DNA of 63,823 nucleotides from a virus. Shown piece after piece: positions 1,859-63,823 of this stretch. The notes under the pieces were generated by a model. It made no database searches. It was not told the DNA's origin and saw nothing but the letters and a program-made list of their open reading frames with translations. A program made the position numbers and the translations under genes. Position 1 is the stretch's first letter. Every line of letters starts with the position of its first letter. The stretch lies in the IMG/VR virus record IMGVR_UViG_3300042376_000206; one strand, written 5' to 3'.

Positions 1859-2039
1859 CTTCGGCTTTCTTTGCAAGGTCAAGGATGTAACGCTCTGCCA
1901 TCGCCAGACCTTGGATGACGCCGCAGAGCTTCTGGTATTCCTCAAAATTGCGACACGCACCACCCGCCAAGTCATCGGCGTAGTTGTTCATGTCGGTGCG
2001 TATTTGTTCGCGCAATACGCGTGCGAAATCTTGGATCAT
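1845..2039 (-). CDS. hypothetical protein (64 aa)
   Basis: ORF track. Its ATG overlaps the portal TGA as ATGA (2036..2039), suggesting translational coupling. Confidence 0.6.
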   Translation of the reverse strand: MIQDFARVLREQIRTDMNNYADDLAGGACRNFEEYQKLCGVIQGLAMAERYILDLAKKAEDADE

Positions 2040-4498
2040 TTAGTGGGCGTGTCCTTTCGGCGTTGTTGGGCCTCTTGCGCTTTGGCCTTTGCGATGTCGA
2101 TGCCCATGCGGACACCTTCACGTTCTTGCTGAGCCTGCAGTGCTGCCTTGTCTTTCTCGATGTCCGCCTGGGTCTTCATGGCACGAAGCTCCAGGTCGCC
2201 CTTGATGCGCTCAGCTTCAAGCTCCTGCTTATCTGCCGTAGCCGTTGCATCGAGCATGATCTTCTGAGCCTTGAGTTCAAGCTCCTTCTGACGCAGCGCC
2301 AGTTCTTGCTGCTGCATCTGGATCACCGGGTCTTGCATCTGCTGCTGCGCCTGCTGCATCGCGGCCTGCTGAGCGGCTTGGGCGTTGACTTGCGCAGCGG
2401 CTTGGGCCATCATTGACGACAGCGCGATCTCGATTTGCGGCGGGAGTTTCTCGTCTTCGGGAGGCAGAGGCATGCCCAACTGCGCCTCAATCTGCTTGCG
2501 CATCTTGTAGCCCAGGTGTTCAGCAATATGCGCTTGCTGCGCGGCAACGATTTGCTGCGCCATCGGGTTCTGCCCCACAACCTGCGCCACCAGCGGGTTC
2601 TGCGTAATCATCATGTGCACCGCGATGTGTGCGTCGTGATCCTGGTGCAGGAACGCCTTGACCGGCTTGTTCTTCAGCAAGTCTTGGTTCTCCGAAACGG
2701 GGTCGATAGGCTTCTCGTCGTCAGGCAACGGAACGAGCTTCTCTGCGTTCTTGATGCCCAACACGTCCAGCATCGCCCTGTGCAACTGCGGCAGGTCGTA
2801 AATCTGCGGGGCCATCTGCGCCATCTGAATGACGGCTTGGTACTGCACCACCCGCTGCGACATCGTGGCCGCGTTGGGGTCGCTCACAGGGATAACGTCT
2901 ACAAGGTCGTAGTCCGACTGCTTGGCCCGCTTGGTGCCGTACTCAGGGTCGTACTCGTAGTCCGGCTCGGTGTAGTCGCGGATGATCGACTTCAGGAGCT
3001 TGAACTCCTGCTTGAGCGAGTAGTGAGTGCGGGCCTGGACCGCCGTCAAAATTTTGAGTTGCCGCTCCAGCAGCGCCAGCGTGGTGCCCACCGGCGCCTG
3101 CGCAGACATGTCGGCCACCTTCATGTCTGCGGTGGCAGCGAAGCGACGACCCTCCTCTACGATGTTGCCCAGCAGGGTGTAGAGAACTTGGCTGGGCTCT
3201 TTGTACGGCAGCGGCAGGATGCTGTCGCGGATGTTGCCGGAGGCTACATCGACATCGCGGAACTCGCCAGGGGCGATAGGCGTGTCATCGCCCTTGATCC
3301 GCAAACCACGTGACTTCAGTCCGCCAGGGAGGTTAGACAGAGTGCCAGCATCAACAAGCTGACGCATGAGCGAAGTAGCACTCTTTGCAAAGCCACCGAT
3401 AAGATGGAACAGACCAAAGCCGTACGCTCCGAAGCCTGGAACGTACTGGTAGTGCACGAAGTGCTGGCGCTTGAGTTTGAGGTCGTCATCCTCGTTCCAA
3501 TTCCTGTAGATGCTCAGGATGGTGTTCGTACCGCGAATAACGGTAACCACGTACGGCACGGCAATCTCGCCGTCCTTGTCACCAAACGGGTCATCTGGGA
3601 TGTGCAGATCAACGTGCACCTCCATCAGCGTGAAGCGATCATCGTTGAGATCGCTGAAGCCCGTCTCTTTATCTTTGGCCTGCTGGATGTCGGACTTGTT
3701 CTTGTCCGGCTCGCCCAGTTCTACCTCACGGTAAAACCCTGCAGCCTGCAGCTTGATAAGGTCGTTCTTGCTCTTGCGCATGACGTGCGTCAGGCGACGG
3801 CACGTGTCCATGTCAGTGGTGCCGTACGGCAGGATGATGTCCTCCGCAGGCACAAACATGCTGACTTGACGACCTAGGTTCGGGTCGTAGTACACCTTCT
3901 TGAACGCCGAGCCGGTAGCCGGGAGGCTCCACAGCATGCGCTCGTGCTCAGGCCGGTACTCCTTCATGACTTCGGTCAACTCGAAGTTCATGTCGTCCTG
4001 CACACGAACGGCGGCTTCTTTCTTCTCGGGCGTCTCTTTGCCGATGATCTTGGTCTTGACCGGGCCTGCTGCAGGGAACGTCTCCGTGATCATCTCTGAC
4101 TGGAAGCGCACAACGGCTTCCGTAATCATCGGATGGAATACACCACAGGCGCCGTTCCACGGCTCCGTCCGCTCTTCGATCTGCAAGCCCAGCAGCTTCA
4201 GACCGTCCACATACGCCTTCTCCCACTCCTTGCGGGAGGCTTTGTCCTGGTCGATCTCAGACATCAGGTCGCCGCCCAGGCCCTCAATAAAGCCTGAGTC
4301 AAGATACTCAGCCAAGTTGGCGTCGAATGAGTCTGCGGTCTTGGGTTCTGGGCGGAGGCTGATCTCCATTCCGTCGATGCCGATGTTGACCTCTTCTGGG
4401 TCAACGATCTCGATTTCAATCTCGGGCTCTGCCTGTGCCAGTTCCTCGATGCCGGTGGGGGCGGGGTAAAGCGCCTTGTCGATGTTGGTTGCCATCAT
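2036..4498 (-). CDS. portal protein
   Basis: 820 aa, immediately downstream of the large terminase. Size and position are typical of a portal. Long Gln/Ala/Glu/Lys-rich helical C-terminal extension (barrel-like). RBS AAGGA upstream of ATGATG. Confidence 0.8.
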   Translation of the reverse strand: MMATNIDKALYPAPTGIEELAQAEPEIEIEIVDPEEVNIGIDGMEISLRPEPKTADSFDANLAEYLDSGFIEGLGGDLMSEIDQDKASRKEWEKAYVDGLKLLGLQIEERTEPWNGACGVFHPMITEAVVRFQSEMITETFPAAGPVKTKIIGKETPEKKEAAVRVQDDMNFELTEVMKEYRPEHERMLWSLPATGSAFKKVYYDPNLGRQVSMFVPAEDIILPYGTTDMDTCRRLTHVMRKSKNDLIKLQAAGFYREVELGEPDKNKSDIQQAKDKETGFSDLNDDRFTLMEVHVDLHIPDDPFGDKDGEIAVPYVVTVIRGTNTILSIYRNWNEDDDLKLKRQHFVHYQYVPGFGAYGFGLFHLIGGFAKSATSLMRQLVDAGTLSNLPGGLKSRGLRIKGDDTPIAPGEFRDVDVASGNIRDSILPLPYKEPSQVLYTLLGNIVEEGRRFAATADMKVADMSAQAPVGTTLALLERQLKILTAVQARTHYSLKQEFKLLKSIIRDYTEPDYEYDPEYGTKRAKQSDYDLVDVIPVSDPNAATMSQRVVQYQAVIQMAQMAPQIYDLPQLHRAMLDVLGIKNAEKLVPLPDDEKPIDPVSENQDLLKNKPVKAFLHQDHDAHIAVHMMITQNPLVAQVVGQNPMAQQIVAAQQAHIAEHLGYKMRKQIEAQLGMPLPPEDEKLPPQIEIALSSMMAQAAAQVNAQAAQQAAMQQAQQQMQDPVIQMQQQELALRQKELELKAQKIMLDATATADKQELEAERIKGDLELRAMKTQADIEKDKAALQAQQEREGVRMGIDIAKAKAQEAQQRRKDTPTK

Positions 4499-4504
4499 GA
4501 ATCC

Positions 4505-6043
4505 TTAGTAGTACGCCGCCTTGCGTGGCGTGAAGTAGCCCTGCTCGGCCTCATCAGAGTCCAAGCTGACAAAGCCCCCTTGACGGAAGCGCAGCAGGGC
4601 TTGGGTCGTAGTGTCCACGAAGTCGTCGTGCTCGCCTACTGGGAACGACGCCATCTCCTCGATGACCTCCCGTGCCCAGCGCGTGTCGGGCGCCCAGACT
4701 TTCCCAGAAAAGAACAGGTCAGCCACAGCGTTCATCCGCACCACCTTGTCGTTGCCACGTGATGGTGTGTACTCGGCCACGGGGATACCCATGTTTCTGA
4801 GTTCGTATATTAAAGGCGCACCTGCAGCCTTCTTTTCCACGATGAACGCGTCAGGCTCCCACTCTTTGTAGTGCTTGAGCGCCACTTGCTTGAGTTCGGG
4901 AAACGCCATTCGATCCTTAAACGCGTCCAGCAGAATCAACTGCGGGGCGTCGCCCTCTTCTTCGTTATAGAACACGCCCCAGGTGGTGCAGGCGCTGAAG
5001 TCGGAGGTGGTCTTTGTCTCGAACGCCGTGTCCCAAGACTGGATCACGTACTCGCACGTGGGCGGATCGTCTTTTGGCCACAGCCGCCAATGGTGGCGTC
5101 CCACGATGGCGGAAGAGTCTGCCGTAGGCTGCTGCATGTACTGCGCGTTCCAGAAACGCGGGTCCATGTTGGCCTTCTTGGACTTGAGTTGGTCCAGTGG
5201 CCACTGCTCTGGCCACAGAGACTTCTCATTCTCTTGGCTTTCGTTCAGGATGGCCGGTAACTCTACGATCTCCCACTGATCTGCGTCAGGGTTCTTGGTC
5301 TGGTAGTCGATGAGACGACCAGTGAGGTCCAGCAGCGACCACCTCGTCATGATGACGATGATGGCACCACCCGGCATCAAGCGTTGCAGCGGGCCGGTCT
5401 GGAACCACGACCATGCCGTGTCGAACGCGAGCCTTGAATTTATTTTTACATCTTGTTCGCTATGAGGATCGTCAATAACGAACAGATCAGCACCGCGACC
5501 AGCCAGAGCACCACCGACACCAGCAGCGTAATACTGGCCTCCTCGGGAGGTAGACCACTTCCCGGCGGCTTTTTGGTCCTCAGCCACCAGCGTTTCCGGG
5601 AAGAGTTCGCCGTACTCATCGCTGTTGATCAGGTTTCGGATGCGCCGACCAAAGTCCTCCGACAGGGACGCGGTGTGCGTGCCCATGATGATCTTCTTCT
5701 CTGGAAATTTACCCAGGAAGTACGCTGGAAACAAGTAGGAACTGAACTCGGACTTACCCATACGCGGGGCGATGTTGATGATCACCCGCTTTTTCTTGCC
5801 CGAGAGCACGTCTTCGAAGATTCTGGCCAGCTTTTTGTGGTGTGGCCCCACCTTGAACCCTGGATAGACGTGCTTGGCGAAGCCGATGAGGTTGGTTTTG
5901 GCCAAATCACGCGACACCCGGCGCTCTTTTTCCTCAAGCGCCTCAAAAAGCTCCATCTTCTCCTGCAAGGAGAGCGTCGGAAGCGCGGCCTGGATGGCCG
6001 CAAGCTCACGCGGGCTGATGCTATTGAGTGACTGGAGGTTCAT
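4505..6043 (-). CDS. terL: terminase large subunit
   Basis: 512 aa. Walker A-like NIAPRMGKSEF and Walker B-like ADLFVIDDPHSE. C-terminal nuclease-type acidic motifs (IQSWDTAFE, GEHDDFVDT). Confidence 0.9.
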   Translation of the reverse strand: MNLQSLNSISPRELAAIQAALPTLSLQEKMELFEALEEKERRVSRDLAKTNLIGFAKHVYPGFKVGPHHKKLARIFEDVLSGKKKRVIINIAPRMGKSEFSSYLFPAYFLGKFPEKKIIMGTHTASLSEDFGRRIRNLINSDEYGELFPETLVAEDQKAAGKWSTSRGGQYYAAGVGGALAGRGADLFVIDDPHSEQDVKINSRLAFDTAWSWFQTGPLQRLMPGGAIIVIMTRWSLLDLTGRLIDYQTKNPDADQWEIVELPAILNESQENEKSLWPEQWPLDQLKSKKANMDPRFWNAQYMQQPTADSSAIVGRHHWRLWPKDDPPTCEYVIQSWDTAFETKTTSDFSACTTWGVFYNEEEGDAPQLILLDAFKDRMAFPELKQVALKHYKEWEPDAFIVEKKAAGAPLIYELRNMGIPVAEYTPSRGNDKVVRMNAVADLFFSGKVWAPDTRWAREVIEEMASFPVGEHDDFVDTTTQALLRFRQGGFVSLDSDEAEQGYFTPRKAAYY

Positions 6044-6683
6044 CCGGGGTTTCCGGGGCGGTTTCTTCTGCGGTCGTGATGTCGATTACGTCCGTGACCT
6101 GCATGAAGCGGTTGATCTTGTCCTTGATCTTGGCTTCGATCTCGGCATCCGTCAGGTCAGTCTTCTTGACCTCCACCCGCTCCGTGAATAGCGCCACTTC
6201 CGTCACGCGCCCAAGCATGTCGAGCGCCTTCAGCCGGATTTTTGCGTCGGGGTGCTTGGTTTCCTCAAGGATTTGGCTCACGGCGTAGCCGCGAAGCTCC
6301 TTGGCCTGCTCCACAAACGCCCAGTCATACGCCACCAACATCCCTGTTAGGTGCCGCACAGCGGGTGGAGTCTTCAACTGGATGAGCGCCTTGCGCTGTT
6401 CCTCCGGCGACTGGGTGGTCATGGCCTGGAAAGCCTGCCGTGCCTGGGAGGCGGCTGCGGACTGCTGGGATTCTTCGGCGTTGGTGGCGCCCATTTCCTT
6501 GAGCCAGTCTGCGGTAGATACCTGGGCGGCTAAGACTTCATCCGAAGTCGCCTTATCCAAAGGCGTCACCTCGTCAAGGGTGGCCAGTGGTGGCTTGTAG
6601 TCAATCAGGTGTTCAAGCATTTCGAAGCGGGGCTTGCGTCCGTAATTGGGCGGAGTGTATAGTGGGTACCGAGCGGCGTGCAA
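6021..6683 (-). CDS. putative terminase small subunit (start uncertain)
   Basis: 220-aa ORF overlapping terL by 23 nt and first gene of the late arm. Call is by position only. The TTG at 6683 lies 26 nt from an AGGAGAAAC-like box (6710..6718). An alternative ATG sits at 6620. Confidence 0.4.
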   Translation of the reverse strand: MHAARYPLYTPPNYGRKPRFEMLEHLIDYKPPLATLDEVTPLDKATSDEVLAAQVSTADWLKEMGATNAEESQQSAAASQARQAFQAMTTQSPEEQRKALIQLKTPPAVRHLTGMLVAYDWAFVEQAKELRGYAVSQILEETKHPDAKIRLKALDMLGRVTEVALFTERVEVKKTDLTDAEIEAKIKDKINRFMQVTDVIDITTAEETAPETPDEPPVTQ

Positions 6684-6740
6684 GCGTCTCTCGAATGTGT
6701 GTTGGTTTTGTTTCTCCTCTCAGTTGCTAGACTGATCTTG

Positions 6741-6769
6741 CCCCGGCTGCAAAGACCGGGGCTTTTTTT
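6741..6769 (+). terminator. intrinsic-terminator-like hairpin in the divergent control region
   Basis: CCCCGG-ctgcaaaga-CCGGGG followed by c + T7. The U-tract exists only in the plus orientation, and no plus-strand gene lies upstream. Confidence 0.5.
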
Positions 6770-6796
6770 CGCCCATGCTTGTCAAATTTTTATAAT
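6768..6796 (+). promoter_or_regulatory. candidate sigma70-type early promoter
   Basis: Perfect TATAAT at 6791..6796. A weak -35 TTCGCC sits at 6768..6773 with a 17-nt spacer. The predicted start falls in the G6 run near 6803. Confidence 0.35.
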
Positions 6797-6827
6797 ATAC
6801 CGGGGGGTATTTTATTTGAAAAGGTAT

Positions 6828-6850
6828 GGGGGTGGGTTTGGTATTTGGGG
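6828..6850 (+). other. G-run cluster (G5-T-G3-N10-G4)
   Basis: Read directly: gggggtgggtttggtatttgggg on the plus (early-sense) strand. Confidence 0.5.
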
Positions 6851-6930
6851 TTTGTGGCGAGTTTCTGGAAAATGCTGAGTGTGGTTGGGGATTAGTGTTC
6901 ACACAACTACGCCACCTCGCTGCCAATATT

Positions 6931-6952
6931 GGGGGGTGGGGGTAGGGTGGGG
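6931..6952 (+). other. canonical G-quadruplex motif
   Basis: GGGGGGTGGGGGTAGGGTGGGG: four G-runs of 3 or more with loops of 1-2 nt, on the plus strand upstream of the first early gene. Confidence 0.7.
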
Positions 6953-6992
6953 TCGAGATACCCAGTTTCTGAGAATCTCGGAAACCCCAGTA

Positions 6993-7001
6993 TGCTACAA
7001 T
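6993..7001 (+). promoter_or_regulatory. candidate extended -10 promoter element (TGcTACAAT)
   Basis: TGCTACAAT lies 90 nt upstream of the first early ATG. No convincing -35. Confidence 0.3.
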
Positions 7002-7036
7002 AGATTCATCGGTTGGGATAAATCCCGCCGACAGCA

Positions 7037-7060
7037 CGGGGAAGGTTTCTTCCCCGTTTT
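7037..7060 (+). terminator. GGGGAAG-hairpin family copy 1 (leader terminator/attenuator-like)
   Basis: cGGGGAAG-gttt-CTTCCCCg followed by TTTT. Lies 31 nt upstream of the ATG at 7091. Confidence 0.55.
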
Positions 7061-7090
7061 CATTTGTCTCATCACTTGGAGGTATCCACC

Positions 7091-7501
7091 ATGAACACAC
7101 TCAACCAATTCGCATGGCAACTCGGTGCACACGCTCGCATCACGCAAGCCCACTCGCTTGTGTGGCACAAAGCCTATGTGAAGGCCACACCTGAGACGCA
7201 GGCCGCGTGGCGCGAGGGATTTATCACCCACTTCCTGCGCGGCAACCTTGAGGTCACAGAGGCGCAAGCCAAGGCCATCATGGGCAAGTCCCGCACAGAC
7301 CGCAGCACCGCCCATCAGAACGCCTACCGCGCTGCCGAGATGAAGTTCAACTACCACATCCGCCGCAACTCCAGCGGCGATGCTGAGCCTGCTAAGCCCA
7401 CCCGCACGACTGCCGCAGAGAAGGCGGCGTTCGCTCGGTTCCTGGCTGCGTTCGACGGCGATGTGAAGCGTCTGAAGGCTGTCGTCAAGGCTCTCGCCTG
7501 A
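7091..7501 (+). CDS. hypothetical early protein (136 aa)
   Basis: ATG at 7091 preceded by TTGGAGGT. The ORF-track start at 7064 lacks an RBS. Confidence 0.8.
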   Translation: MNTLNQFAWQLGAHARITQAHSLVWHKAYVKATPETQAAWREGFITHFLRGNLEVTEAQAKAIMGKSRTDRSTAHQNAYRAAEMKFNYHIRRNSSGDAEPAKPTRTTAAEKAAFARFLAAFDGDVKRLKAVVKALA

Positions 7502-7505
7502 TCCT

Positions 7506-7521
7506 GGGAAGATTTCTTCCC
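7506..7521 (+). promoter_or_regulatory. GGGGAAG-hairpin family copy 2
   Basis: GGGAAG-attt-CTTCCC followed by cgattcctg (no U-tract), 5 nt after the stop of 7091..7501. Confidence 0.55.
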
Positions 7522-7530
7522 CGATTCCTG

Positions 7531-7560
7531 CCGCACTCCCTCTGCGCGAGGGGGTTGCGG
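7531..7560 (+). promoter_or_regulatory. second stem-loop of the 7502..7605 spacer
   Basis: ccgcactccctc-tgcgc-gagggggttgcgg: about 12 bp of stem with one G-U pair and one bulge, followed by ttatttcc. Confidence 0.45.
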
Positions 7561-7605
7561 TTATTTCCGTTCGCCACGCGAACTCTTTTACTTTGGAGGT
7601 TTCCC

Positions 7606-7803
7606 ATGTCCAAGCAACTCAACCTGCGTCTCGGCTCCAACTGCCCGCCCCACATCAAAGCCCGCCTAGCCGAGCTACGAGCGGACTGCGTCCGTAGGAG
7701 CGAAGAGCACCACCGCAAGCAACGCATCCTCGACAACGCCGAGCGTTACGAGACTTGGCAAGAGGTGCGCCTGTCATCTCTGCCCCTGAAAGGCCGTCGC
7801 TGA
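7606..7803 (+). CDS. hypothetical early protein (65 aa)
   Basis: ATG at 7606 preceded by TTGGAGGT. This is the internal Met of ORF 7555..7803. Confidence 0.7.
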   Translation: MSKQLNLRLGSNCPPHIKARLAELRADCVRRSEEHHRKQRILDNAERYETWQEVRLSSLPLKGRR

Positions 7804-7809
7804 CCGGAT

Positions 7810-7829
7810 CGGGGAAGGTTTCTTCCCCG
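7810..7829 (+). promoter_or_regulatory. GGGGAAG-hairpin family copy 3
   Basis: cGGGGAAG-gttt-CTTCCCCg, 7 nt after the stop. No U-tract. Confidence 0.55.
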
Positions 7830-7862
7830 TGTCCAACTTTTGTCAGGGTTTACCCTCGGTTT

Positions 7863-8158
7863 TGGGTAGCTACCCACCTCCTCACTACCTACGGGCGCAA
7901 CATTGGGTAGCGTAAGCTGTTGATTTGTATGAACTACTACTACTACTACCCAACTACCCATATATATAGAGGTACACCAAAAAGATTTGTTGTTGTTCAC
8001 CCAAGCACGCCAGCTTTTTCTTTCTTAAAAAACTTTGCCATCTGTGCTTGCCCCAAATTCTGGGTAGTTGGGTAGCTGCCCAACTTCGTGAGCCGCATCA
8101 ATGACTTACACTACCCAATGTCTCGCCCGTACCTTGTGAGTAGGTGGGTAGCTACCCG
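7863..8158. repeat. large imperfect inverted repeat / heptamer (TGGGTAG) array flanking an AT-rich core
   Basis: Arms 7863..7960 and 8061..8158 align as reverse complements at 72 of 98 positions by hand alignment. There are ten TGGGTAG/CTACCCA heptamers: 14-bp palindromes at 7863..7876 and 8145..8158, singles at 7904 and 8111, and tandem pairs at 7946..7960 and 8061..8075. All are mirror-symmetric about position ~8010.5. The core 7961..8060 contains tatatata, ttgttgttgtt and ctttttctttcttaaaaaac. Confidence 0.9.
7933..7947. repeat. (ACT)5 microsatellite inside the left arm
   Basis: actactactactact read directly. It lies exactly where the two arms lose similarity. Confidence 0.9.
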
Positions 8159-8184
8159 AACCCTTACACCAAGCTGACACTACC

Positions 8185-8841
8185 ATGCCATCCAACACCA
8201 CCAAACCCCTTGCCACACGCCGCTGCACGCTGTGCTCACGCGACCTACCCCTGCGCCTGTTCCGGCGCTGGTCAAGGCTCAAGCTGCGCCTCGAAGACTC
8301 CTGCAATGCGTGCATCCCACCCAAACCCTACAAGGAGATGACCAAACGCGAACGCATCAACGCCCGCTCAACCTCACACACCAAGGTGTCGCCTGCCTAC
8401 CTCGACGCCATCGACAGGCGAGAACGCGAGCACTTCAAGAACAGCGTCTTGCCTGACCGAGCCTACGCAGCCCACTCAAGAACCCGGCGCGAGAACTGGA
8501 ACGCTGCCCTGCTCAACGCTGTGCGTGACGAGTTCGCATGGGCAAGCAACACCTACCTGCGTCACAGGTCGATGGTGGATAAAAACAAGGCCGAATACCA
8601 ACCGTATGTAGCCTTCTACAAATACTACGCAAGCCTTCTAAAACACATAAGAGATACCGCCGCGCCCAAATCAAAACTCAAGGGCACGCCAATAAAACCC
8701 ACGATGGAGGACGCCAATCCCCTGACCTACATAACACCGGAGGAATTAACCCGTCTCAAATACCTGTACACCCAGTGCACACCCATCCACGGCAAGCGAA
8801 GTGCTGCCCGCGACCCGTGGTTTCTTTTCTGGCAGCAGTAA
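8185..8841 (+). CDS. hypothetical protein with N-terminal CxxC...CxxC zinc-ribbon-like motif (218 aa)
   Basis: ORF track. RRCTLCSRDLPLRLF...EDSCNAC near the N-terminus. No Shine-Dalgarno before the ATG. First gene after the heptamer array. Confidence 0.7.
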   Translation: MPSNTTKPLATRRCTLCSRDLPLRLFRRWSRLKLRLEDSCNACIPPKPYKEMTKRERINARSTSHTKVSPAYLDAIDRREREHFKNSVLPDRAYAAHSRTRRENWNAALLNAVRDEFAWASNTYLRHRSMVDKNKAEYQPYVAFYKYYASLLKHIRDTAAPKSKLKGTPIKPTMEDANPLTYITPEELTRLKYLYTQCTPIHGKRSAARDPWFLFWQQ

Positions 8842-8842
8842 C

Positions 8843-8860
8843 GGGGAAGAAACCTTCCCC
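8843..8860 (+). promoter_or_regulatory. GGGGAAG-hairpin family copy 4 (loop inverted)
   Basis: GGGGAAG-aaac-CTTCCCC, directly followed by AGGAGG and the ATG at 8875. Confidence 0.55.
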
Positions 8861-8874
8861 AGGAGGACTACACC

Positions 8875-9147
8875 ATGCCCATGAACCTAAACAAACCCGA
8901 CTACGCAGGCAAGAGCGCAAGCGAACTCATCGAGATATTCGAGGCACAGATAGCCGCGCTGAGGCAGAAGAGATCGCCCATGAAAGTCAAAGACCTGATC
9001 GCAGCCTTGCAAGCGCAGGGCGTCAACCCCGATGCTGAGGTGCATGTGTGGCTCGATGGCGTGCACTACACCATCAACGCCGAAGTACCCGTCGATCCCT
9101 GGGGCGAGGACGGTATGTTTGTAGACATCAACCTGAAGGAGGAATGA
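8875..9147 (+). CDS. hypothetical early protein (90 aa)
   Basis: ORF track. AGGAGG RBS. Confidence 0.8.
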   Translation: MPMNLNKPDYAGKSASELIEIFEAQIAALRQKRSPMKVKDLIAALQAQGVNPDAEVHVWLDGVHYTINAEVPVDPWGEDGMFVDINLKEE

Positions 9148-10596: not shown

Positions 10597-10621
10597 GGGA
10601 AGATTTCTTCCCCATTTTTTT
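10597..10621 (+). terminator. GGGGAAG-hairpin family copy 5 (intrinsic terminator)
   Basis: GGGAAG-attt-CTTCCC + ca + T7, 3 nt after the stop at 10594. Confidence 0.7.
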
Positions 10622-11704: not shown

Positions 11705-11722
11705 GGGGAAGGTTTCTTCCCC
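11705..11722 (+). promoter_or_regulatory. GGGGAAG-hairpin family copy 6
   Basis: GGGGAAG-gttt-CTTCCCC followed by gattcgtg. Copy 2 has the same 3' flank, gattcctg. Confidence 0.55.
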
Positions 11723-25756: not shown

Positions 25757-28654
25757 ATGGAACCGCTAGAGTTCTTAGCGGCTGTCCTGCCGTCTCCCGG
25801 TCACGGGTATTACTGCGCGGCAGAACTCTCCTCCAAGAGAAAACAGCACGTCTTCATCGAAGACATCGCTGAGATGCGTCCGTACGTATCTCAGTGGTTG
25901 GAGGGTCAGCAGGACATCTACTTTGCGCTTGCGACGTTTGCCGATAAGGGCAGTCGCACCGCAGACAACGCTGAGTACATCAAGTCCTTGTTCATCGACA
26001 TGGATGGGTACGACAGCAAGGAAGCAGCACAGGAGGCACTGGATAAGTTCTTGGCAGACACCGGGCTCGACGCCTTTGGCAAGCCCTGGATCATCGCTTC
26101 AGGCGGCGGTCTGCACTGCTACTGGGCGTTCGACAAGCCCCTGACCGTAGGTGAGTGGAAGCCGATTGCTGAGACGTTCAAGCGTCTGTGCAAGGAGCGG
26201 TCACTGGCCATCGACAACACCGTCACGGCAGACGCCGCACGGGTGTTGCGTGTTCCTGGCACCAAGAACTTCAAGAAGAAGTACGGCGAGCCGCGCCCGG
26301 TGGAGGTGCTGGCTGAGGGCGACGCTCCTGTAAACCCACAGGAGTTCTTCGCCAAGCTGCGCGACCTGCTCGGAGACACAGCGCCAACCCCATACGCCCA
26401 AGGCATGAACCTGCCTGGGCAGCGCCCAGTCAACGCCACCAAGACGGGCGTGCAGATGCTGGCCAACACCATCGTGCGGTTCAAGCACATACTGGCTAAG
26501 ACGGGCGATGGCGACGGTTGCTTGCAGCTTGATCACTACGTCAACCACGCCAAGGATGACGGCATGGAGCCGCTGTGGCGGGGCTGGCTGAGTCAAGCCA
26601 AGTACTGCGCCGATGGCGAGAAGGCTTCGATCTGGCTGAGCCAACTCCACCCGTACGACGACGAGCGCATGCAGGCAAAGCTGCGCGAGATAAAAGGCCC
26701 CTATCCCTGCGTCAAGTTCGATAGCGAGAACCCAGGCGTGTGCCAGAAGTGCAAGCACTTCGGCAAGATCACCAACCCCCTGGCCCTGGGCCGGGAACTG
26801 GTGGCCGACAACTCCGAGAAAGAGGTCGAGATCAAGCCGAGCGACCCGGACGATCCCGAGGCACCCACCATCAAGGTGGTGCGCCCGACGCCTCCCAAGG
26901 GCTACGCATACGGCGCCAATGGCGGTGTGTATGCCGACCGGATCGTGGAGGAAGCAGACGGAACCAAGCGCAAGAAGCAGGTCATGATCCTGCCGTACGA
27001 CATGTTCGTGGTGGACATCCTGAACAAGGACAACGAGCACACCGTCCACATGGTGGCCAATCGCCCCAACGCTCCTGCCGACGTGCTGTTCGCTCAACGG
27101 GCGGTGGTCAGCAAGGACGAACTGCTCAAGTCCCTGGCGCAGCAGAACATCATGGCTGCGTTCGGCGCAGGCAACGACAAGAATCTGGTGGAGTACATCC
27201 GGGCCTGCGTGGAGGAGGCCAGCGTCAACAAACGCGCAATCAAGATTCCTCAGCAGTACGGGTGGCAGGAGGACAACTCCTTCGTCTACTCCGGGCGCAT
27301 CTTCTTTCCCGATGGCCGCACGCGCACCGTGCCGATGCCAGACCTGCAGAACCTGACACGCAACACGCGGGCAGCGGGCACACTGGAGGAGTGGCGCAGG
27401 TTCCCAGAACTGATGGTGCAGCGTGGGCTGTACGACCTCCTGGCCGTCTCTACTATGGCGTTTGGCGCACCGCTGATGCGCTTCACGCAGTTCGCTTGCT
27501 TGACCATCCATGCAGGCTCGACCAGTTCTGGTACTGGTAAGACGATGGCGATGAACCTGATCAACTCGGTCTGGGGGCATCCGACCCGGTACCGCACAGG
27601 CAAGTCCACCTCAGCAGTCACGATGCAGCAGCGCATCGGTAACCTGAACTCGCTGCCCTTCACCTCGGACGAGATCACACACAAGTCCCGGCAGGAGATG
27701 GAGTGGTTCCCTGGCCTGATCTTCGATCTGGCTGAGGGCCAGGGCAAGGAGAAGTCCGAAGCCCACCACAACCGAGAGCGCCTGAACCTCGTCTCCTGGG
27801 CGACGCAAGCCTACCTGACATCGAACACGCACATGCACGACTTCATGTCGGGCGTGCGCAAGCACACCTCCCAAGGTGAGTTGTTCCGCATGTTGGAGTG
27901 GACGCCCGAGGAGAAGCTCAACTGGACGCCGGAAGAGGAAGACATCCTGCGCCTGCTCAACACCAATCACGGGGTGGCGGGCGAGAAGTACGTCCGGTGG
28001 CTTGTGCAGAACCAAGACACCGCCCGCAAGGTGTTGGCCAAGACGCACGAACGCCTTAAGCGTGAGTGGGCGCTAACTGGTGAAGAGCGGTACTGGGGCA
28101 ATGGCTGTGCGTGTGATGTCGCCGGAGCAATCCTGGCCGGTTCCAACTACGCAGGCATCTTCGACTACCCCGTAGACGAGATCATCAACAGCTTCTTCAA
28201 GTTGGTGGAGAAGGCCCGCAAGGTGGTGCGCACCGGTTCGCGCAACGCCGAGGATGTTCTCAACGCCTTCACCCGTGACCACTACGGTCACTTCGTGGTG
28301 GTCAAGCGCAGCAACGGGTCGTTCATGGCGTCACTGGGTAACGGAGAGCCGGTTGATCAGTCAATCACGCGCAGTACCGTCATGGGACGCGTGGAGCATG
28401 GCATCGACAAGCCTGGGTTCGTGGACTACTTCATCGAGGAATCGGTGATGCGCTCACACTGCGTATCCATGTCCTACGGCTATGAAGACTTCAGGCGGCA
28501 GATAGCCACCATCGAAGGCTACAGCGTCAAGGTGCTGCGCAAGGACATGATGGCCAGGACCAAAGGCCCACAGATGCGGGTGCACGCGCTGTGCATCAGT
28601 CGCAGAGAAGAACTAGACAACAGTGCCGAAATACTTCCCGTGGGAGAAGATTGA
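25757..28654 (+). CDS. primase-polymerase / helicase fusion protein
   Basis: 965 aa. N-terminal AEP-like DxD (SLFIDMDGY). C-terminal P-loop HAGSTSSGTGKT and Walker B-like LPFTSDEI. Confidence 0.85.
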   Translation: MEPLEFLAAVLPSPGHGYYCAAELSSKRKQHVFIEDIAEMRPYVSQWLEGQQDIYFALATFADKGSRTADNAEYIKSLFIDMDGYDSKEAAQEALDKFLADTGLDAFGKPWIIASGGGLHCYWAFDKPLTVGEWKPIAETFKRLCKERSLAIDNTVTADAARVLRVPGTKNFKKKYGEPRPVEVLAEGDAPVNPQEFFAKLRDLLGDTAPTPYAQGMNLPGQRPVNATKTGVQMLANTIVRFKHILAKTGDGDGCLQLDHYVNHAKDDGMEPLWRGWLSQAKYCADGEKASIWLSQLHPYDDERMQAKLREIKGPYPCVKFDSENPGVCQKCKHFGKITNPLALGRELVADNSEKEVEIKPSDPDDPEAPTIKVVRPTPPKGYAYGANGGVYADRIVEEADGTKRKKQVMILPYDMFVVDILNKDNEHTVHMVANRPNAPADVLFAQRAVVSKDELLKSLAQQNIMAAFGAGNDKNLVEYIRACVEEASVNKRAIKIPQQYGWQEDNSFVYSGRIFFPDGRTRTVPMPDLQNLTRNTRAAGTLEEWRRFPELMVQRGLYDLLAVSTMAFGAPLMRFTQFACLTIHAGSTSSGTGKTMAMNLINSVWGHPTRYRTGKSTSAVTMQQRIGNLNSLPFTSDEITHKSRQEMEWFPGLIFDLAEGQGKEKSEAHHNRERLNLVSWATQAYLTSNTHMHDFMSGVRKHTSQGELFRMLEWTPEEKLNWTPEEEDILRLLNTNHGVAGEKYVRWLVQNQDTARKVLAKTHERLKREWALTGEERYWGNGCACDVAGAILAGSNYAGIFDYPVDEIINSFFKLVEKARKVVRTGSRNAEDVLNAFTRDHYGHFVVVKRSNGSFMASLGNGEPVDQSITRSTVMGRVEHGIDKPGFVDYFIEESVMRSHCVSMSYGYEDFRRQIATIEGYSVKVLRKDMMARTKGPQMRVHALCISRREELDNSAEILPVGED

Positions 28655-28916
28655 GCGAGGGCAGGGGTTCTTCATCCCTGCCCTTGATCTCGAAGCCATG
28701 CGTGAAGCAGGGTTGCGTGCGGCTGTGCCTTTGAAGCTGAAGGATGCACGGGCGCTGCCGTGCATCCACCAGGGGTTTATCGGGCTTCTATTCTTCCGAG
28801 CGTGTCCCGCACAGAAGAAGCGACCAGTATCTTCGCCTGACGCAGATCATCCAGAAGATCACGCTTCTCCTGAGATGTCAGAGTACTACCGCGAACCTGA
28901 CGCTCCGCCTTCGTGA
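28623..28916 (+). CDS. questionable small ORF overlapping the convergent giant gene
   Basis: GTG start with no clear RBS. PWEKIERGQGFFIPA... resembles a small phage protein pattern I recall only vaguely. The last 140 nt are antisense to 28777..38721, and a 9-bp hairpin lies inside it. Confidence 0.3.
   Translation: MPKYFPWEKIERGQGFFIPALDLEAMREAGLRAAVPLKLKDARALPCIHQGFIGLLFFRACPAQKKRPVSSPDADHPEDHASPEMSEYYREPDAPPS
28658..28684 (+). terminator. hairpin at the convergent junction (candidate early-arm terminator)
   Basis: AGGGCAGGG-gttcttcat-CCCTGCCCT followed by tgatct. Lies 4 nt after the primase-helicase stop. Confidence 0.4.
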
Positions 28917-31900
28917 TCTCGCCGATCTGTTGCCGGAAGGTGCCAGACAGCGACGCCAATTGAATCTTCTCCAGGTTGTCGCGCAAGTAAGCGTCGGCCC
29001 TGGCCAGTTCGCCCTTCTCCACAAGCCCTTCGTAGGTTTCCTTGGCGGCGGTGTAGTCCTTGAGCCGCTCGAACGTGTCGTCGATGATGCCTGCTGCGTC
29101 CTTGGGCTGGAACAGCGTACCCACCAGCGGCATCTGAGACATGCGCTTCTCGGGCAGATCTGTCTCCGGCGTAGGCAGCACCACGTTGGGAACCTGCATG
29201 AGCGCCATGCCCAGGCTACCGGTGTAGCCGCTGACCAGCGTCTCGATCTTGATCGGGGAGATGTTGAACAGCCGTCCCAGGAGTTTGGCAGTCTCGGAAG
29301 TGTTCTCCCGATAGCGTGCCCAAGGCTCCTGCATCTGCTCAGCAGCAGACTCCAGATCGCGCCCTGTGAAGAAGGACTTGCCCAGGCCCACCTCGATCAA
29401 CGGCTTGAACGCAGCGGGGACGCCGTAGTTGCCGCCACCAGGAATCATGTTGCGGATGATGCCCTTGAGCGCATCAACCGCCTCATCAGCACCACGCTCA
29501 GCGTAGATGCCGTTGATGAGCGCCTCGGGCAGCGCCTTGAAGATGTAACCCAGTTCAAACGGGATGGGTACGCGCAACTTCTCATCGAAGCCAGGAATCG
29601 GTACAAACCAGTTGTTGTACTTCTCATCGGGCCGAGCGTTCTTGTACGTCTCGTCGTCCTGCATGGCCATCGCGTACATCATGGACATACCGGCAAGCAT
29701 CGTGCCACGAGCGATCAGCTTCTCCTTGATCTGCAGCCGCTCGTTCATCGGCATCTGGCCACGCAGTGAGCGATACAACACGTCGAGCGACTGAATTTGC
29801 GCATTCATGAACGGAATCAGCGTGGTCAGCAACTGCACGCTCGGGTCGATACCGCGCCGTGCAAAGTTCATCGACTCCAGCGCCATGAAGGTGGCTTCCA
29901 TTTCGGACAGCCCCTGGTTGATGTAGCTCTCGTACTGGGCGCGGCGGGTGGCGGCATCGGCCTCCATCGACATCGCTTCCAGTTTGGAGAACGCCTTGGC
30001 CCAGCCCGGACGACCTTCTTGCATCTCACGCAACAGACGCGCCTTGTCCTCAGAGGTTCCCGTGAAGACCTGCCCACCCGTGATGCCACGCCTGTCTACG
30101 CTACTGGCTCTGCCAATTTGCTGCAGAGCGCCGAGCACTGGGGGTGCGTTGGAGCCGCTGGCCATGTAGGAGGACAGCGAGTCACGGAACAACTGCCGAC
30201 CTGCGTAGACGGGCGATGCGGTGATCGCACGGCGCAGGAACCGGGCGGGGATGCCCATGAGTTCAATCGCTTGGGGGAACATAGTCGGGATACCGGCCAG
30301 ACCCTTGGTCAGCAGTTCAGACGGGATGCCGATGTGGTCGGTATCGACGATGGCAAACCAGTCCTCACCATCAATCTTGAACTCGACCGCCCCCTGGGGA
30401 GCGCCTCTCTTGCCTGCCTTCCTGATCTTGGCCAGTCCAACAGACGCCATCTCCCACATCGCGTTCTTCACGGCGATGTTGCGCATGGCCATGTCAATCA
30501 GCATCGACGTGTTCTGCACGCTGCTGTCGAGGAAGTTGAAGATCGGCTCTTCGCCACCCACCAGTTCTTGCAGGTGCGGGCTGTCCTTGAGGTTGCCGAT
30601 GCGAACAGGCGTCAGGCCACCAATCATCAGTTCGGCAACGCCGTTGCGCACGCGGTAGTACGGGATGTAGTCCTTCTCCTTGAGCAAGCGGTCGGCTTCT
30701 TCCTTGCTCATCGCGCTTGTCTGCACCATGAACCGCAGCAGGTTCTGGTTGTACTCGTTGTACATTTCGCGGACGTCAGCAAACGCTTCCTTGAGTGTGG
30801 GGTTGGCCTCAATCTCAGCAAACGCGCTCTTGATGTCGGCCTCGGTGGGCAGCGAATCAATGGTCTTCCGCAGGTGCGCTTCGCGCTGCTTGACGCGAAT
30901 CTTGTCGTCTGCCGACAGTTTGCCGCTGGCCAACTCCTGCTCAATCTCTTTCAGTTCCGCTTCAGCCGCCGCACGTCCAAAGTTCAGCTTGTCGTAGCCC
31001 TTGTTGTCGGCACGCAGCTTGGCCAGATACAGGGTAGACAGGCGGTTGGCAGCATCGGCGCTGCCTGCTGCCTTGACGACATCCTTTCGGCTCAGGCGCT
31101 CAACAATCTGCTTGATGCTCACACCAGGCACCGACTCGATGATCCACTCGGTGCCACCATCCCGGCGCTTCTTCTCCATCAACTGCGGCACGCCCTCGGA
31201 CAGCGACAGCGACGTGAAGTTCATCCGCATGCCGTACATCCGCAGGTAGTACATCATCTGCATACCCTTGACAGCGTCACCCACCATCCCAGACACCTTC
31301 TCCAGGGGGGCAAGCGCATCAAGGAAGCGGGTGCGGAACCCCAGGCCCAGCATGCTCTGCTTGAACTTGGCGTAGGTGCTGGGCGACTGCGAGATCATCT
31401 TGTCGGCAGTCAGACCCGCGCCTTCCATAGCCGCGTTGTACTTGGGCGCACGAGAGAAAAGGATTTCGTCTGCCTGCCCAACACGGTCTATGTTTGCGGC
31501 AACGATAGTCGGACCTTCTGCCTTGTCGCCAAAGTCCACGTAGTTGAACCGAGCATCCGTGTCGGTGACCTTGCCACTACGCGCCGCCCGGTCAAGATAC
31601 TTGTGTCCTGCAATCCCATGCTTAAAGAGCCACATGGATGCGTCTTTTGGAGTCAGCCCGTTATTCCTAAAGACGCTTTCAAGCTCCGAAATAAAATCTT
31701 GCTTTGTCTTGCCAGAATCAAACACCGCCTGAAGTTTGGTGGTAAACAAATAGTTTGGGCGCTTAGGGAGCCCAGCTTTTGCAGCCTCTGTCAGCAACCT
31801 TGCGTCATCCGCGTCAATGCGCGCTGTTCTCTTTGGTGTCGGCACATCGCCCAGCGCATTTGCCACCGCATTCTTGACATACTCATTCTGATCCTTCAAC

Positions 31901-34900
31901 GGAAGGTCGAGCATGTAGTACTCGCTCTCAGGGCGCACGCCCAAGACGCGCTTCATTACCCCTTTGGGGCGAGGGACGGGCGGCTCTGTAACATTGGCTC
32001 CGCCAAGCCTATTAACATCAATCTGGTTAAGTGCTTCAAGTTCGGCTGTGTATTCTTCAATCTGTTTTTTCCAAAAATCCCTATTCTTTTTATTGCCGCC
32101 CATAGCGCCGTACTTTTTGGCGTCAGCAATTTCTGTTTTGGCTTCTTCTTTACTCTTCTTCAACCTTTCAACAAAAAGTGCGCGGAGGTCTGCTCCCGGT
32201 TTAGCTCCGTAAATATCAAGCAGGACGCGCCCCACCGCTTTTTCATAGGGGTCTTTAGAACCATATAGCTCGGTGTCGGTCTTGCCGTCATAAGTGAGCT
32301 TGGTTGTAACGCCATCGAAAATAAAGTCTGCTACTTTATCTCTAAGCGCAGGTTTTGAAATAGCGCCTTTTATGCGCGCTGTCGGAGTGTTGTATAGGCT
32401 AAGTTTTGCAAGCACGTCTGCATCTGCCAAGTCCATATACGCGGCAAGATCACTTATCTCTTCCCCAGTAAGTGCGCTCAACCCCGCCTTATCAATCGCA
32501 TCCTTGGCTTTTTTGAAGCCTGCAGCGTCGTAGCCGTACTCAAAGAGCGTCCCCGCAGCATCAAAAGAATCAAGTTCGGTGGCCCCATCGTCGATGTACG
32601 GCTTGTACTCCATAAGATGGAACAGGTCGCTGGCTGTCAGTCCGTTGACTTTGTGCCGCTGAGACTCCCACCACGCTTTGATCTTTGGGCTGTTCCGCCA
32701 GTCATCTAGCTGCTTCTCAGCTTCTTGCTGTTGGTAATGCTGCGCAGTGCTGTACCGCTGAGCGCGATACGTACCAAACCCAAACACCTGAGCGCCTTCA
32801 CCGGTGCCCATGAAGGAGTGGTCGAATTCCTTGAAGACCTTGCCAGTGCCGTGCCATGTGCCGCGCAGTTCCAGATGCGCTGCGCCGTAGGCCATATTGA
32901 CCAGATCGCCTACCTTGAGGTTTCCAGGGTTTACGCCAAACACACGCAGTGCCTGCATAAACTTATCCGCAATGGCCTTCAGCCAAGCGCGAACAACGCC
33001 ACCTTCCTTGGCCTCTGCATCAGGGCGAATGCCTGCCTTGACGGCTTCTTCGACAGCGTAGGCAATGATCTCATCATCCATCTGCGCAGCAGATGTCTTG
33101 GCTGCTTTAGCGCGCGCAATCGCAGCGCGGCCAATCCGGCCTTCAATCGTGTACTCCGGGCGCGTAGTCCAAGACTTGACGGCGTTCGCCAGACCCCGAT
33201 ACTGGGACTCACTGAACAGGTTGCGGAAGCCAATGTGCGCACCGACCTCGTGCAGCAGGATGGCCAGACCGTCGCCCTTGCCGATGTTGTTGGCGATCAA
33301 GTAAGCCGTAGGCTCGCCGCGTTTAGGCCCGTACACAAAGCCAACCGCATCGTCGGGAATCTTGTCCTTGAACTCAGGGTGAGCGGCGATCAGTTCGGCA
33401 AGGTTGTTGTAAATCTTGACCTTATCCGCACGCAAGCCCTTGATGCCAAGCGCCTTCTCCAACTCTTCACCCAGCGTCGCAGCAGTCTGCGGGTTGTTGG
33501 GTTTGCCTTTGGCCTTAGAGAAACGAATATCTTCGTTACCGATACGCACGGAGTCGAGCACATCCTCAACACCCTCGTACATATCCGCAATACGTTCAGC
33601 GCCTTTCTTCTCAGCAGCCATTGCCTCGAACGCGCCTTGCAGACGCTTGGTGCGTTGCGTCGAAGTTTCTTGCTTCTTAAAGCGGCTCTCTAGCACCCTA
33701 CGCTCATAGGGCGTGAGTTGCTGCATAGCCAGAACTGTGACCTGCTCATCAGACTTGAAAAGGCCCTCGCTACGCAGACGCTTTTTAACGTCGATCTCAA
33801 GGTCGCGGAGTTTTTCCGTCAGCGGACCTAGCAGTTCTTTCTCAGACCCAACGCCTTTACCCTTGAACGTAGTCTTCTGAGCTTTGCGAGCCTTGCGTTT
33901 TTCAGTGCGGCTCAACTCAGGCGTGCCCAGTTGCTCTTCGAGCATGGCGGCTTCGCGCTTAAGCTCAGCAATCTCACTGTTCAGACGTTCCTTGGTGGCG
34001 TCTGTGCGGGCGCGGCCAATCGCTGCTTCCTTCTCGGCAACTTCGTTGCCAATCTCAAGGATGCGATCTTCCAGTTCTGTTTCGCGCTCTTCCGCAGCCG
34101 CCTTGCGGGCGTCTGCCAATTTCTGGACTTCGTCTGCACGCTCACGCGCTTCAGCCGCCTGCTCCCGTGCAAGCTCTTCTGCGCTACTGATAGGCGTGAC
34201 ACGGCCCGCTTGCCTGCGAATACCCGGCAAGCCCAGCCCCGACATTGCGCGGCCAGTGCTGATGGTGGCTTCTTGCACAGCCTTACGCTGAGCCACAAGC
34301 TCCTTAGCGGCATCCTTCCGCTCCGCGCCTTGCAGGCGCTTGAGCTTGTCTTCTAGCTTCGTCAAGCGATCACGCTCAAACGTGACCCACTCATCGGCTG
34401 CAGCCTGGAGTTCAGACGACAGCACGAACCCACGCATGCCGGTGGTTTCAGCAGGCTCAATGTTTTGGCTTGGCTTCTCAAGCGCGGTGGCCAGATCGGC
34501 TTGCAGCTTTAGCAGAGCGTTTGTCTCTTCTGTGCGGATGACATCAATCAGCCGTACTGCATCCATGTCGCCTGCCGCCACAGCCGCAGCACGCTCCTTG
34601 CTCACCGCCTGCAGGCTTTGCAGTACCGCCGTGATTTCCTTCTGGAAGCGTTCCGTAATCTCCGCCATCTGCGCTTTCTTCAGCGCAGCCTGGAATGTTT
34701 CGCGGTAAACCTCGCGCTGCTTTTCAATCGCTTCCTGAGTCTCACCAATCTTTTGGTTGCGCTTAGCCTTGTCCTGGGCATCCTTAGCGTCCCAAGCCTC
34801 TTTTACATCGGCAAGCAGCTTTTTGCCGCGCTCCACCGCAGCACGGGCCTTCTTGACAGGCGGTGAGTTTTCAAAGTTGCGGGCAGTCGCACGGGCAAAT

Positions 34901-63691: not shown

Positions 63692-63702
63692 TTAAGGACT
63701 CC

Positions 63703-63823
63703 TAAGTTACTTTGAACCAGAACCAAACCCACCTCCGCGCGTCGTGCTGGACTTGCGGTCCGAGAACAACGGCATCCGTGGATCATTGTTTCGCATGAAG
63801 TGGTTGTCCACTGAGTCCATCTG
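63703..63823. repeat. terminal direct repeat, right copy (duplicate of 1..121; contains a truncated copy of the 3' end of ORF 5..463)
   Basis: Exact identity read directly. Confidence 0.95.

Follow-up and report, generated by a model that had tools for sequence, protein, structure and literature searches.

The 63,823-nt virus record IMGVR_UViG_3300042376_000206, called the window in the following, contains a dyad-symmetric non-coding element between positions 7841 and 8180 that we consider, with somewhat better than even confidence, to be the replication origin of a phage. On sequence grounds it would be an origin of the kind opened by a self-loading helicase at opposed iterons, with the integration host factor (IHF) of the host as architectural factor. 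The element itself is real, non-random, conserved and functional; the mechanistic steps beyond its sequence anatomy and the family identity of the helicase are what we infer. The first 122 nt of the window are repeated at 63702-63823. This end repeat stems from overlap in the assembly of a genome that is circular or terminally redundant and has a true length of about 63,701 bp, and the window is a complete phage genome in circular assembly.

Organization of the heptamer array

The exact heptamer TGGGTAG occurs nine times in the window, always within 7863-8151, compared to 4.37 copies expected genome-wide. The original prediction had counted ten heptamers; the tenth, CTACCCG at 8152-8158, contains one mismatch, and owing to this mismatch only the left one of the two predicted outer 14-bp palindromes is perfect. 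If up to one mismatch is allowed, 13 of the 143 heptamers of the genome are located inside 7841-8180, six in the left and seven in the right arm. Their mirror placement about 8010.5 is indeed exact, as the coordinates of each site pair add up to 16021. A gapless comparison of the arms gave the same complementarity as the earlier count (72/98 overall and 51/62 in the outer part), and a repeat search identified the arms (67 nt, 82% identity) as the largest inverted repeat of the genome. No further non-coding repeat array was found elsewhere in the genome. The gap between the flanking open reading frames (ORFs), which had been given as 355 bp, measures 381 bp (7804-8184).

The true repeat unit is a 22-bp block of three heptamers: two in the same direction separated by a single base, and a third one which directly abuts the second in inverted orientation. 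Each arm contains two of these blocks spaced 76 bp, at 7863-7884(-) and 7939-7960(-) on the left side and at 8061-8082(+) and 8137-8158(+) on the right side. Each arm has the 22-bp block with the palindrome at its outer side; further inward follow a degenerate heptamer, a single heptamer with a perfect IHF consensus fused to it, a 21-bp spacer and the inner tandem pair. This corresponds to about six heptamer iterons per arm, and the iteron orientation is opposed between the arms. The symmetry comes in modules, as it holds for the outer 62 bp and the inner 15 bp and is lost in the intervening 21 bp, with the 21 spacer pairs between the IHF site and the inner repeats being complementary at chance level (36%). 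The (ACT)5 microsatellite that had been noticed in the left arm was recovered as (ACT)5.7 at 7933-7949, within this non-symmetric spacer.

In an alignment of eight sequences the outer 62 mirror pairs were 85% complementary, and 16 pairs were changed on both sides, compared to 5.3 in shuffled controls and 1-2 with the partner slid. One lineage split accounts for nearly all of the double changes, and a single arm-to-arm conversion is enough for them. The left and the right arm have the pentamer TACCT in one and the same direction (7886-7890 and 8130-8134) inside otherwise mirror-symmetric DNA, and positions 7888-7889 are non-complementary to their mirror partners 8132-8133 in all eight aligned sequences (columns 58/308 and 59/307). 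The symmetric arms hold a direction-sensitive feature at this place. Because the conserved bases form discrete motifs rather than pairing, we read the arms as probable protein-binding modules that evolve in concert and not as a selected stem.

No GATC is present in 7840-8180, and no sigma-70-like promoters were found in the element. In a search of Rfam, no family matched the window at the gathering threshold, and the element itself had no match at E values up to 1. Sigma-54-like and P4-iteron-like (TGTTCACC) matches which were seen by eye in the centre are not kept in relatives and were discarded.

IHF sites and the central region

The IHF consensus ATCAANNNNTTR is found once per arm at mirror positions, 7913-7924(-) and 8097-8108(+), between the two blocks of the arm. 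Genome-wide, eight copies were found versus 2.35 expected. The full consensus WATCAANNNNTTR is matched completely at 7913-7925(-), and the site at 8097-8108(+) matches all but the W. Across seven lineages the consensus is perfect in 12 of the 14 arms: ATCAA and TTR are kept, and the N4 between them varies (CAGC, TGAC, CGAC, TGGC, GCAC, GGAC, GGGC, CAAC). This pattern points to selection on the bases that IHF would contact rather than on the N positions.

Unlike the arms, the 100-bp centre is asymmetric in itself, with 62% AT. It comprises, in this order, TATATATA, a TTG/TGT run, GCCAG at the dyad centre 8010.5 and a T/C-rich tract on the + strand. It had been described as the most AT-rich stretch; by percentage it ranks second to fourth, depending on the size of the scanning window. 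According to nearest-neighbour calculations, the least stable 100-bp duplex of the genome is located at 7899-7998 (dG -123 compared to a mean of -151, sd 6) and consists of the left half of the centre and the inner left arm. Both the length of the centre (98-101 bp) and its orientation are conserved across relatives. DnaA boxes (TTATCCACA) with up to two mismatches were absent from 7800-8200, and TTWTNCACA had no match genome-wide; this absence excludes a DnaA-type origin.

Conservation of the element in related phages

Relatives were recovered from viromes and metagenomes by a 15-mer search and by protein-anchored searches. In all examined relatives for which the region was recovered the element is syntenic and located between a small ORF and the homologue of the ORF starting at 8185 (ORF 8185). 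In lineages A, B and C, with downstream proteins 68% and 41% identical to that of the window, the inner tandem pairs are exact, the outer palindromes are near-exact (one base changed in C), the IHF consensus is kept with other N4 bases and the centre has 98-101 bp. The relatives L068/L072/L074, L070 and L073 keep the IHF pair and the overall layout with altered repeats: L073 carries GTGGTAGCTACCAC and GTGGTAG-CGTAAG-N4-TTGAT, and L070 has lost TGGGTAG. The same plan is also found in distant lineages, with a large terminase subunit (TerL) about 80% identical, in combination with TGGATAG, TATCTATCTAT/ATAGATAGATA or GTGGGTA/GTGGGCC as repeats and a TATATA-rich, strand-asymmetric centre. The repeats are therefore lineage-specific yet related (TGGGTAG, GTGGTAG, TGGATAG, GTGGGTA/GTGGGCC). 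Because distant lineages keep the plan with related repeats, we regard the GGTA/GGGTA core as old and slowly drifting.

None of 185,579 genomes of bacteria and archaea contains the element. The phage family to which it belongs is large and uncultivated, with hundreds of contigs in public viromes, and comprises freshwater and marine podophages.

Clusters of the same heptamer in L027 and L043 were rejected, as they belong to unrelated elements. In L027, TGGGTAGTTGGGTAG and two inverted CTACCCA (9047-9103) are found directly where the gene for a P4-type tyrosine integrase starts. They probably serve that unrelated island as arm-type sites, and the common heptamer is most likely a coincidence picked up by the 15-mer search. 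Outside the left arm, a conserved segment of about 28 bp was observed at 7829-7856 (GTCCAACTTTTGTCAGGGTTTACCCT); it is present in the opposite orientation in lineage B (L059, about 5630-5675), as AGGGTAAACCCTTGTCAAAAGTTGGAC.

The primase-helicase as candidate initiator

Among the candidate binders listed in the original prediction, only the primase-helicase gained support, and the protein of ORF 8185 (8185-8841) showed no recognisable DNA-binding fold beyond a zinc ribbon. The primase-helicase, a protein of 965 aa, matches Pfam DUF927 (E 1.7e-24) and, in a phmmer search, the PDB entries 8TCH (E 5e-7) and 5DGK (E 6e-5). An AlphaFold model of residues 370-965 (pLDDT 87.9) was compared with Foldseek and matched 8TCH, the initiator-helicase of the staphylococcal pathogenicity island (SaPI) SaPIbov1, with an E value of 1.7e-18, and 5DGK, Cch of the staphylococcal cassette chromosome mec (SCCmec), with an E value of 3.5e-18 and TM scores of 0.64/0.72. 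The alignments of about 610 columns cover essentially the full length of the targets (484-519 residues). At its C-terminus the model has a helix-helix-beta-beta arrangement (fragment residues 526-581), which may be a winged-helix-like domain. On the basis of its sequence and model, the 965-aa protein belongs to the family formed by SaPIbov1 Rep and SCCmec Cch, whose members are self-loading initiator-helicases.

In the origins of SaPIs an array of 6-12 penta- or hexanucleotide iterons is split in half by a central AT-rich region, and at least two iterons per side have opposite directions (PMC9371898). These iterons are bound by the C-terminal winged helix of Rep, and two hexamers have been proposed to self-load, one per side (PMC9371898). 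Cch also carries DUF927 and is related to SaPIbov1 Rep (PMC7581432). The element in the window shows the same SaPI-type arrangement, with 6 + 7 opposed heptamers (up to one mismatch) around the 62% AT centre.

The original prediction had interpreted the array as a candidate origin, with iterons and an AT-rich unwinding element in the classical layout, or alternatively as a multi-operator switch. The origin part of this interpretation is backed by the helicase, the IHF sites, the conservation in the family, the lowest duplex stability and the lack of a competing array. The layout is not the classical one of lambda or plasmids, with direct iterons beside an AT-rich end, and corresponds to the opposed-iteron type known from SaPI and from double-hexamer viral origins.

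Proposed mechanism

In the mechanism that we propose, the winged-helix-like C-terminal domains of the 965-aa protein would bind the heptamers. Host IHF would sharply bend each arm and bring the outer and inner blocks side by side, where they could be engaged by one hexamer. Two hexamers, one per arm, would then face the centre and, in the manner proposed for SaPI Rep, melt it with no need of a separate loader, and the fused primase would prime synthesis in both directions. Firing might be modulated by early transcription through the element or by the downstream zinc-ribbon protein. Since the element is located about 1 kb from the divergence point of the two gene blocks, forks leaving it would be mostly co-directional with transcription. 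A bolder version, which we put forward as possible but rather doubtful, is a double-hexamer origin of a bacterial virus, parallel to those of eukaryotic viruses, in which IHF-folded arms let six heptamers meet the six winged-helix domains of one Rep/Cch-type primase-helicase ring, two head-to-head rings assemble on a centre of fixed length, and the zinc-ribbon protein, with a novel fold, acts as a new origin-associated factor. In this version it would also be the first origin to be defined for a very large and abundant family of uncultivated freshwater and marine podophages.

Several observations weigh against the origin proposed here. The element lies 17.6 kb upstream of the helicase gene, and the SaPI and SCCmec origins are located directly downstream of theirs; no iteron-like repeats were found beside the helicase gene, and the 120 bp downstream of it contain only a hairpin. 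The C-terminal domain of the helicase exceeds the core in variability by a small margin only, and conservation is good in its putative DNA-reading region. The conserved C-terminal motifs fit a slowly drifting iteron core, which is no proof. A co-variation between iterons and the C-terminal domain was not shown; only two lineages beyond that of the window gave both loci, and in one of them, L080, there is no array at the expected position. The IHF consensus is absent from more distant lineages, and the presence of IHF in the host is an assumption. The GC-skew analysis suggested earlier as a check was run; the skew is dominated by gene orientation and uninformative, and it gives no origin signal. 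Furthermore, at this level of analysis an operator array would give a similar picture, and so would a pac site like that of P1.

Alternative explanations

The leading alternative, which we regard as unlikely, is an operator array or transcription gate, in which a phage regulator on the heptamers loops the DNA together with IHF. It would control the zinc-ribbon gene and delayed-early genes or block immediate-early read-through, and it may coexist with an origin, as in the case of plasmid iterons. No obvious ribosome-binding site precedes ORF 8185, and the element fills the sole intergenic space upstream of it; the neighbourhood of small ORF, element and zinc-ribbon ORF is conserved; and several small helix-turn-helix (HTH) proteins are encoded in the genome. 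Abutting direct and inverted heptads also resemble the sites of ribbon-helix-helix repressors. However, the element contains no sigma-70-like promoter that we could find, the exact heptamer is present nowhere else in the genome, the small upstream ORF shows no co-variation with the repeats, and 12-13 sites over 300 bp around a low-stability 100-bp spacer of conserved length exceed the needs of known operators. Clearly less probable is a pac site of the P1 type, where terminase subunits would sit on the two repeat clusters, IHF would bend the DNA and the first cut would be made in the centre. P1 pac comprises 161 bp, with hexamers in two clusters (4 and 3), a site for IHF and cleavage at the centre (PMC10028697), and the combination of two repeat clusters, IHF and a centre is a form common to both. 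The circular assembly with its 122-bp overlap is compatible with headful packaging, and the terminase genes are 1.2-1.9 kb off. On the other hand, pac and cos sites are known from inside the small terminase gene or from its direct vicinity. Here the element is separated from this gene by two early genes and the divergent promoter region (6684-7060), and that region, next to the terminase genes, is a better candidate for the ends or pac. In addition, the element is free of GATC and located inside the early transcription unit, and strict two-fold symmetry is unexpected for packaging, which is directional.

A structure-forming inverted repeat, acting as DNA cruciform, single-strand hairpin or RNase III-processed hairpin of the early RNA with the heptamers being incidental, has only a slim chance of being correct. 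The single strand folds at -73.8 kcal/mol (z = -10.8 compared to shuffles), and the complementarity of the outer 62 pairs with their 16 double changes in the eight sequences would be in line with pairing. These changes belong mostly to one lineage split and are explained by one arm-to-arm conversion, the 21 pairs next to the inner repeats are complementary at chance level, and two positions are never complementary. Conservation is strongest in the heptamers and the IHF consensus, with a variable N4, and not in the pairing; there was also no Rfam match. A loop of 100 nt disfavours cruciform extrusion. The least credible explanation is a recombination site, either an attP with arm-type and IHF sites or a fim-like invertible switch, and we consider it highly improbable. 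Arm sites and IHF sites flanking an AT-rich core over about 300 bp do resemble lambda attP and the fim switch, and the unrelated island L027 has TGGGTAG pairs beside its P4-type integrase gene; the latter likeness is expected by chance from the 15-mer search. No integrase or invertase was found among the 30 proteins scanned (early and replication block and neighbours), the absence of the element from the 185,579 bacterial and archaeal genomes leaves an attP without a bacterial partner, and every contig recovered has the centre in one orientation with respect to the flanking genes. Both attP and invertible switch were rejected for want of a recombinase among the scanned proteins, a bacterial partner and an inverted variant.

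Features and genomic neighbourhood

The coordinates of the features are summarized in the table.

Table. Coordinates of the heptamer element, its parts and associated features in the window
Feature	Position	Strand	Remarks
Putative small terminase gene	6021..6683	-	220 aa; start 1.2 kb from the element
GGGGAAG-gttt-CTTCCCC hairpin between upstream ORF and element	7811..7828	+	One of six in the early region
Whole dyad-symmetric non-coding element: arms, centre and short symmetric flanks (TGTCAGGGTT / AACCCTTACA)	7841..8180	.	Syntenic and conserved in relatives
Outer-left 22-bp iteron block, TGAGGAG G TGGGTAG CTACCCA on the minus strand; holds the 14-bp palindrome TGGGTAGCTACCCA	7863..7884	-	
Degenerate heptamer CTACCTA	7885..7891	-	
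Single heptamer abutting the left IHF site; conserved module AACATTGG(GTAG)-CGTAAG-N4-TTGAT	7904..7910	+	
Left IHF consensus AATCAACAGCTTA (WATCAANNNNTTR)	7913..7925	-	Consensus bases kept, N4 varies in relatives
Arm-specific spacer without dyad symmetry, including (ACT)5.7	7925..7945	.	36% complementary
Inner-left tandem heptamers CTACCCAACTACCCA	7946..7960	-	Invariant in lineages A, B and C
Asymmetric 100-bp centre, proposed unwinding region	7961..8060	+	Length and orientation conserved
Inner-right 22-bp iteron block, TGGGTAG T TGGGTAG CTGCCCA	8061..8082	+	
Right IHF consensus ATCAATGACTTA	8097..8108	+	Preceding base C, A in several relatives
Single heptamer abutting the right IHF site	8111..8117	-	
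Outer-right 22-bp iteron block, TGAGTAG G TGGGTAG CTACCCG	8137..8158	+	
218-aa zinc-ribbon and long-helix protein	8185..8841	+	Directly downstream of the element
965-aa primase-helicase, proposed trans-acting initiator	25757..28654	+	Primase-like N-terminus, DUF927 AAA+, C-terminal helix-helix-beta-hairpin

The early and replication block consists of + strand genes from about 7064 to 28654 and encodes a family-A DNA polymerase, an exonuclease, an SNF2 helicase and the 965-aa primase-helicase. The element is located 0.8 kb into this block, after two small ORFs (7092-7501 and 7606-7803) and before the 218-aa ORF 8185. The remaining genes are on the - strand and include those for the small and large terminase, at a distance of 1.2-1.9 kb from the element, a probable portal gene (2036-4498) and the gene for a 3314-aa protein.

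The family of ORF 8185 comprises at least 291 proteins with a size of about 210-230 aa. Their common features are a CxxC...CxxC zinc ribbon at the N-terminus, long helices and, at the C-terminus, a conserved P-W/aromatic tail. Its homologue adjoins the element wherever located (lineages A-E, L070 and the L103/L143 type). The family has no annotation, the protein had no match in isolated phages, and its AlphaFold model, of moderate confidence, had no significant neighbours in PDB or BFVD; a recognisable DNA-binding or initiator fold was rejected on this basis. The protein could be the product of an origin-associated or a regulated gene.

The slot of the small upstream ORF at 7606-7803 was compared in L059, L068, L070, L072 and L074. 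It is occupied by two versions that differ strongly: lineages A and C carry MSKQLNLRLGSN...KARLAELRA..., and lineages B and D carry MPHT.RHQQRALPLRGG.PNPKAK.... Each version resembles a short strand with a helix after it and may be ribbon-helix-helix-like; no Pfam or PHROG match was obtained. This ORF was rejected as heptamer binder: lineage B and L070 carry the same version, and B has ten TGGGTAG and L070 none.

A hairpin of the type GGGGAAG-N2-4-CTTCCCC is present six times (7038-7055, 7506-7521, 7811-7828, 8843-8860, 10597-10612 and 11705-11722), only between early + strand genes. The copy at 8843 has an inverted loop, and a T run follows only two of the copies. In relatives the stem is kept by compensatory changes (GGGGAGA..TCTCCCC in L060, GGGGAC..GTCCCC in L059). 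The hairpin may serve the early operon as an attenuator or act in the processing or stability of its RNA.

A non-coding region of 380 bp (6684-7063) separates the first early gene from the small terminase gene, which is divergent to it. This region contains a terminator-like hairpin at 6735-6770, with a sub-threshold Rfam match to a betaproteobacterial small RNA (E 0.013), an AT-rich patch at 6774-6873 and G-rich runs (GGGGGGTGGGGGTAGGGTGGGGT) at about 6932-6954. This region is a candidate for the site of early and late promoters, of physical genome ends or of pac.

According to TerL, the nearest isolated phages (about 50% identity) are the pelagiphages HTVC023P/027P, DSL-LC04 and MinM2-type cyanophages. 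None of the isolated phages has similarity to 7500-8900 at the DNA level, and a published account of the pelagiphages is silent on genome ends, origins and IHF. With regard to the host, the nearest genome matches were short contigs of metagenome-assembled genomes, mostly proteobacterial, Rfam gave a weak hint at Betaproteobacteria, and the host is probably Gram-negative. An N4-like phage, with giant virion RNA polymerase and hairpin promoters, was also considered and rejected: TerL groups near HTVC023P-type and related podophages and not near N4, the 3314-aa protein has no sequence match in PDB, and hairpins occur in both orientations. The ORF of this 3314-aa protein (28777-38721, - strand) had PHROG 18222, of unknown function, as its sole match; we presume that it encodes a protein of the virion interior or of ejection. 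Long repeat arrays within coding sequence, one repeating every 51 nt and the other every 60 nt, were observed on the - strand at 50987-52770 and 53874-54617, inside ORFs of 1101 aa and 340 aa, which are probably fibre or tail proteins.

Comparison with known systems

The closest parallel is provided by SaPI (SaPIbov1, SaPI1, SaPI5) and SCCmec with Cch/Cch2. They share with the window the helicase family, the split and opposed iterons around an AT-rich region, a similar iteron number (6-12 there and 12-13 here) and a primase encoded with or fused to the helicase. In contrast to these islands, the heptamers are arranged here in 22-bp triple blocks, each arm has an IHF site and the gene is 17.6 kb away; the element is larger, with long concerted arms, and belongs to a tailed phage of about 64 kb with a probably Gram-negative host and not to a satellite island. 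Inverted sites of an initiator-helicase are also found in the core origins of SV40/polyomavirus and papillomavirus, where head-to-head hexamers melt adjacent AT-rich DNA and origin binder and helicase are one protein. These core origins differ in their size of about 64 bp, a one-sided AT tract, a DNA-binding domain N-terminal to the helicase and the lack of an IHF-type bender. The archaeal oriC, with origin recognition box (ORB) elements flanking a DNA unwinding element (DUE), resembles the element in that inverted initiator sites on either side set the polarity of helicase loading; there, the initiator Orc1/Cdc6 is separate from the helicase MCM and IHF is not involved.

An IHF site between groups of initiator sites, whose bend joins them near the unwinding region, is known from oriC, pSC101 and R6K gamma. 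These origins use DnaA and/or Rep and direct iterons with the AT-rich region at one end, whereas the element has no DnaA boxes and is two-fold symmetric. P1 pac resembles the element in that its short repeats form two clusters and that it has an IHF site and a functional centre; its location inside pacA, the GATC-containing hexamers for Dam control and the length of 161 bp have no counterpart here. Like the element, lambda attP has arm sites and IHF sites flanking an AT-rich core (about 240-300 bp), but here no integrase gene was found and the arms are inverted copies of each other.

Origins are known for hardly any uncultivated phages, and self-loading helicases of the Rep/Cch type have been studied only in staphylococcal islands. 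If the origin assignment is correct, the element would extend the self-loading mechanism to a large phage family with probably Gram-negative hosts, in a version which recruits host IHF and in which the origin is located far from the initiator gene. The 22-bp block or the 340-bp element would then provide a compact substrate for studying the positioning of two hexamers and the loader-free opening of the duplex, and the array would serve as a practical marker for locating origins in related metagenomic genomes.

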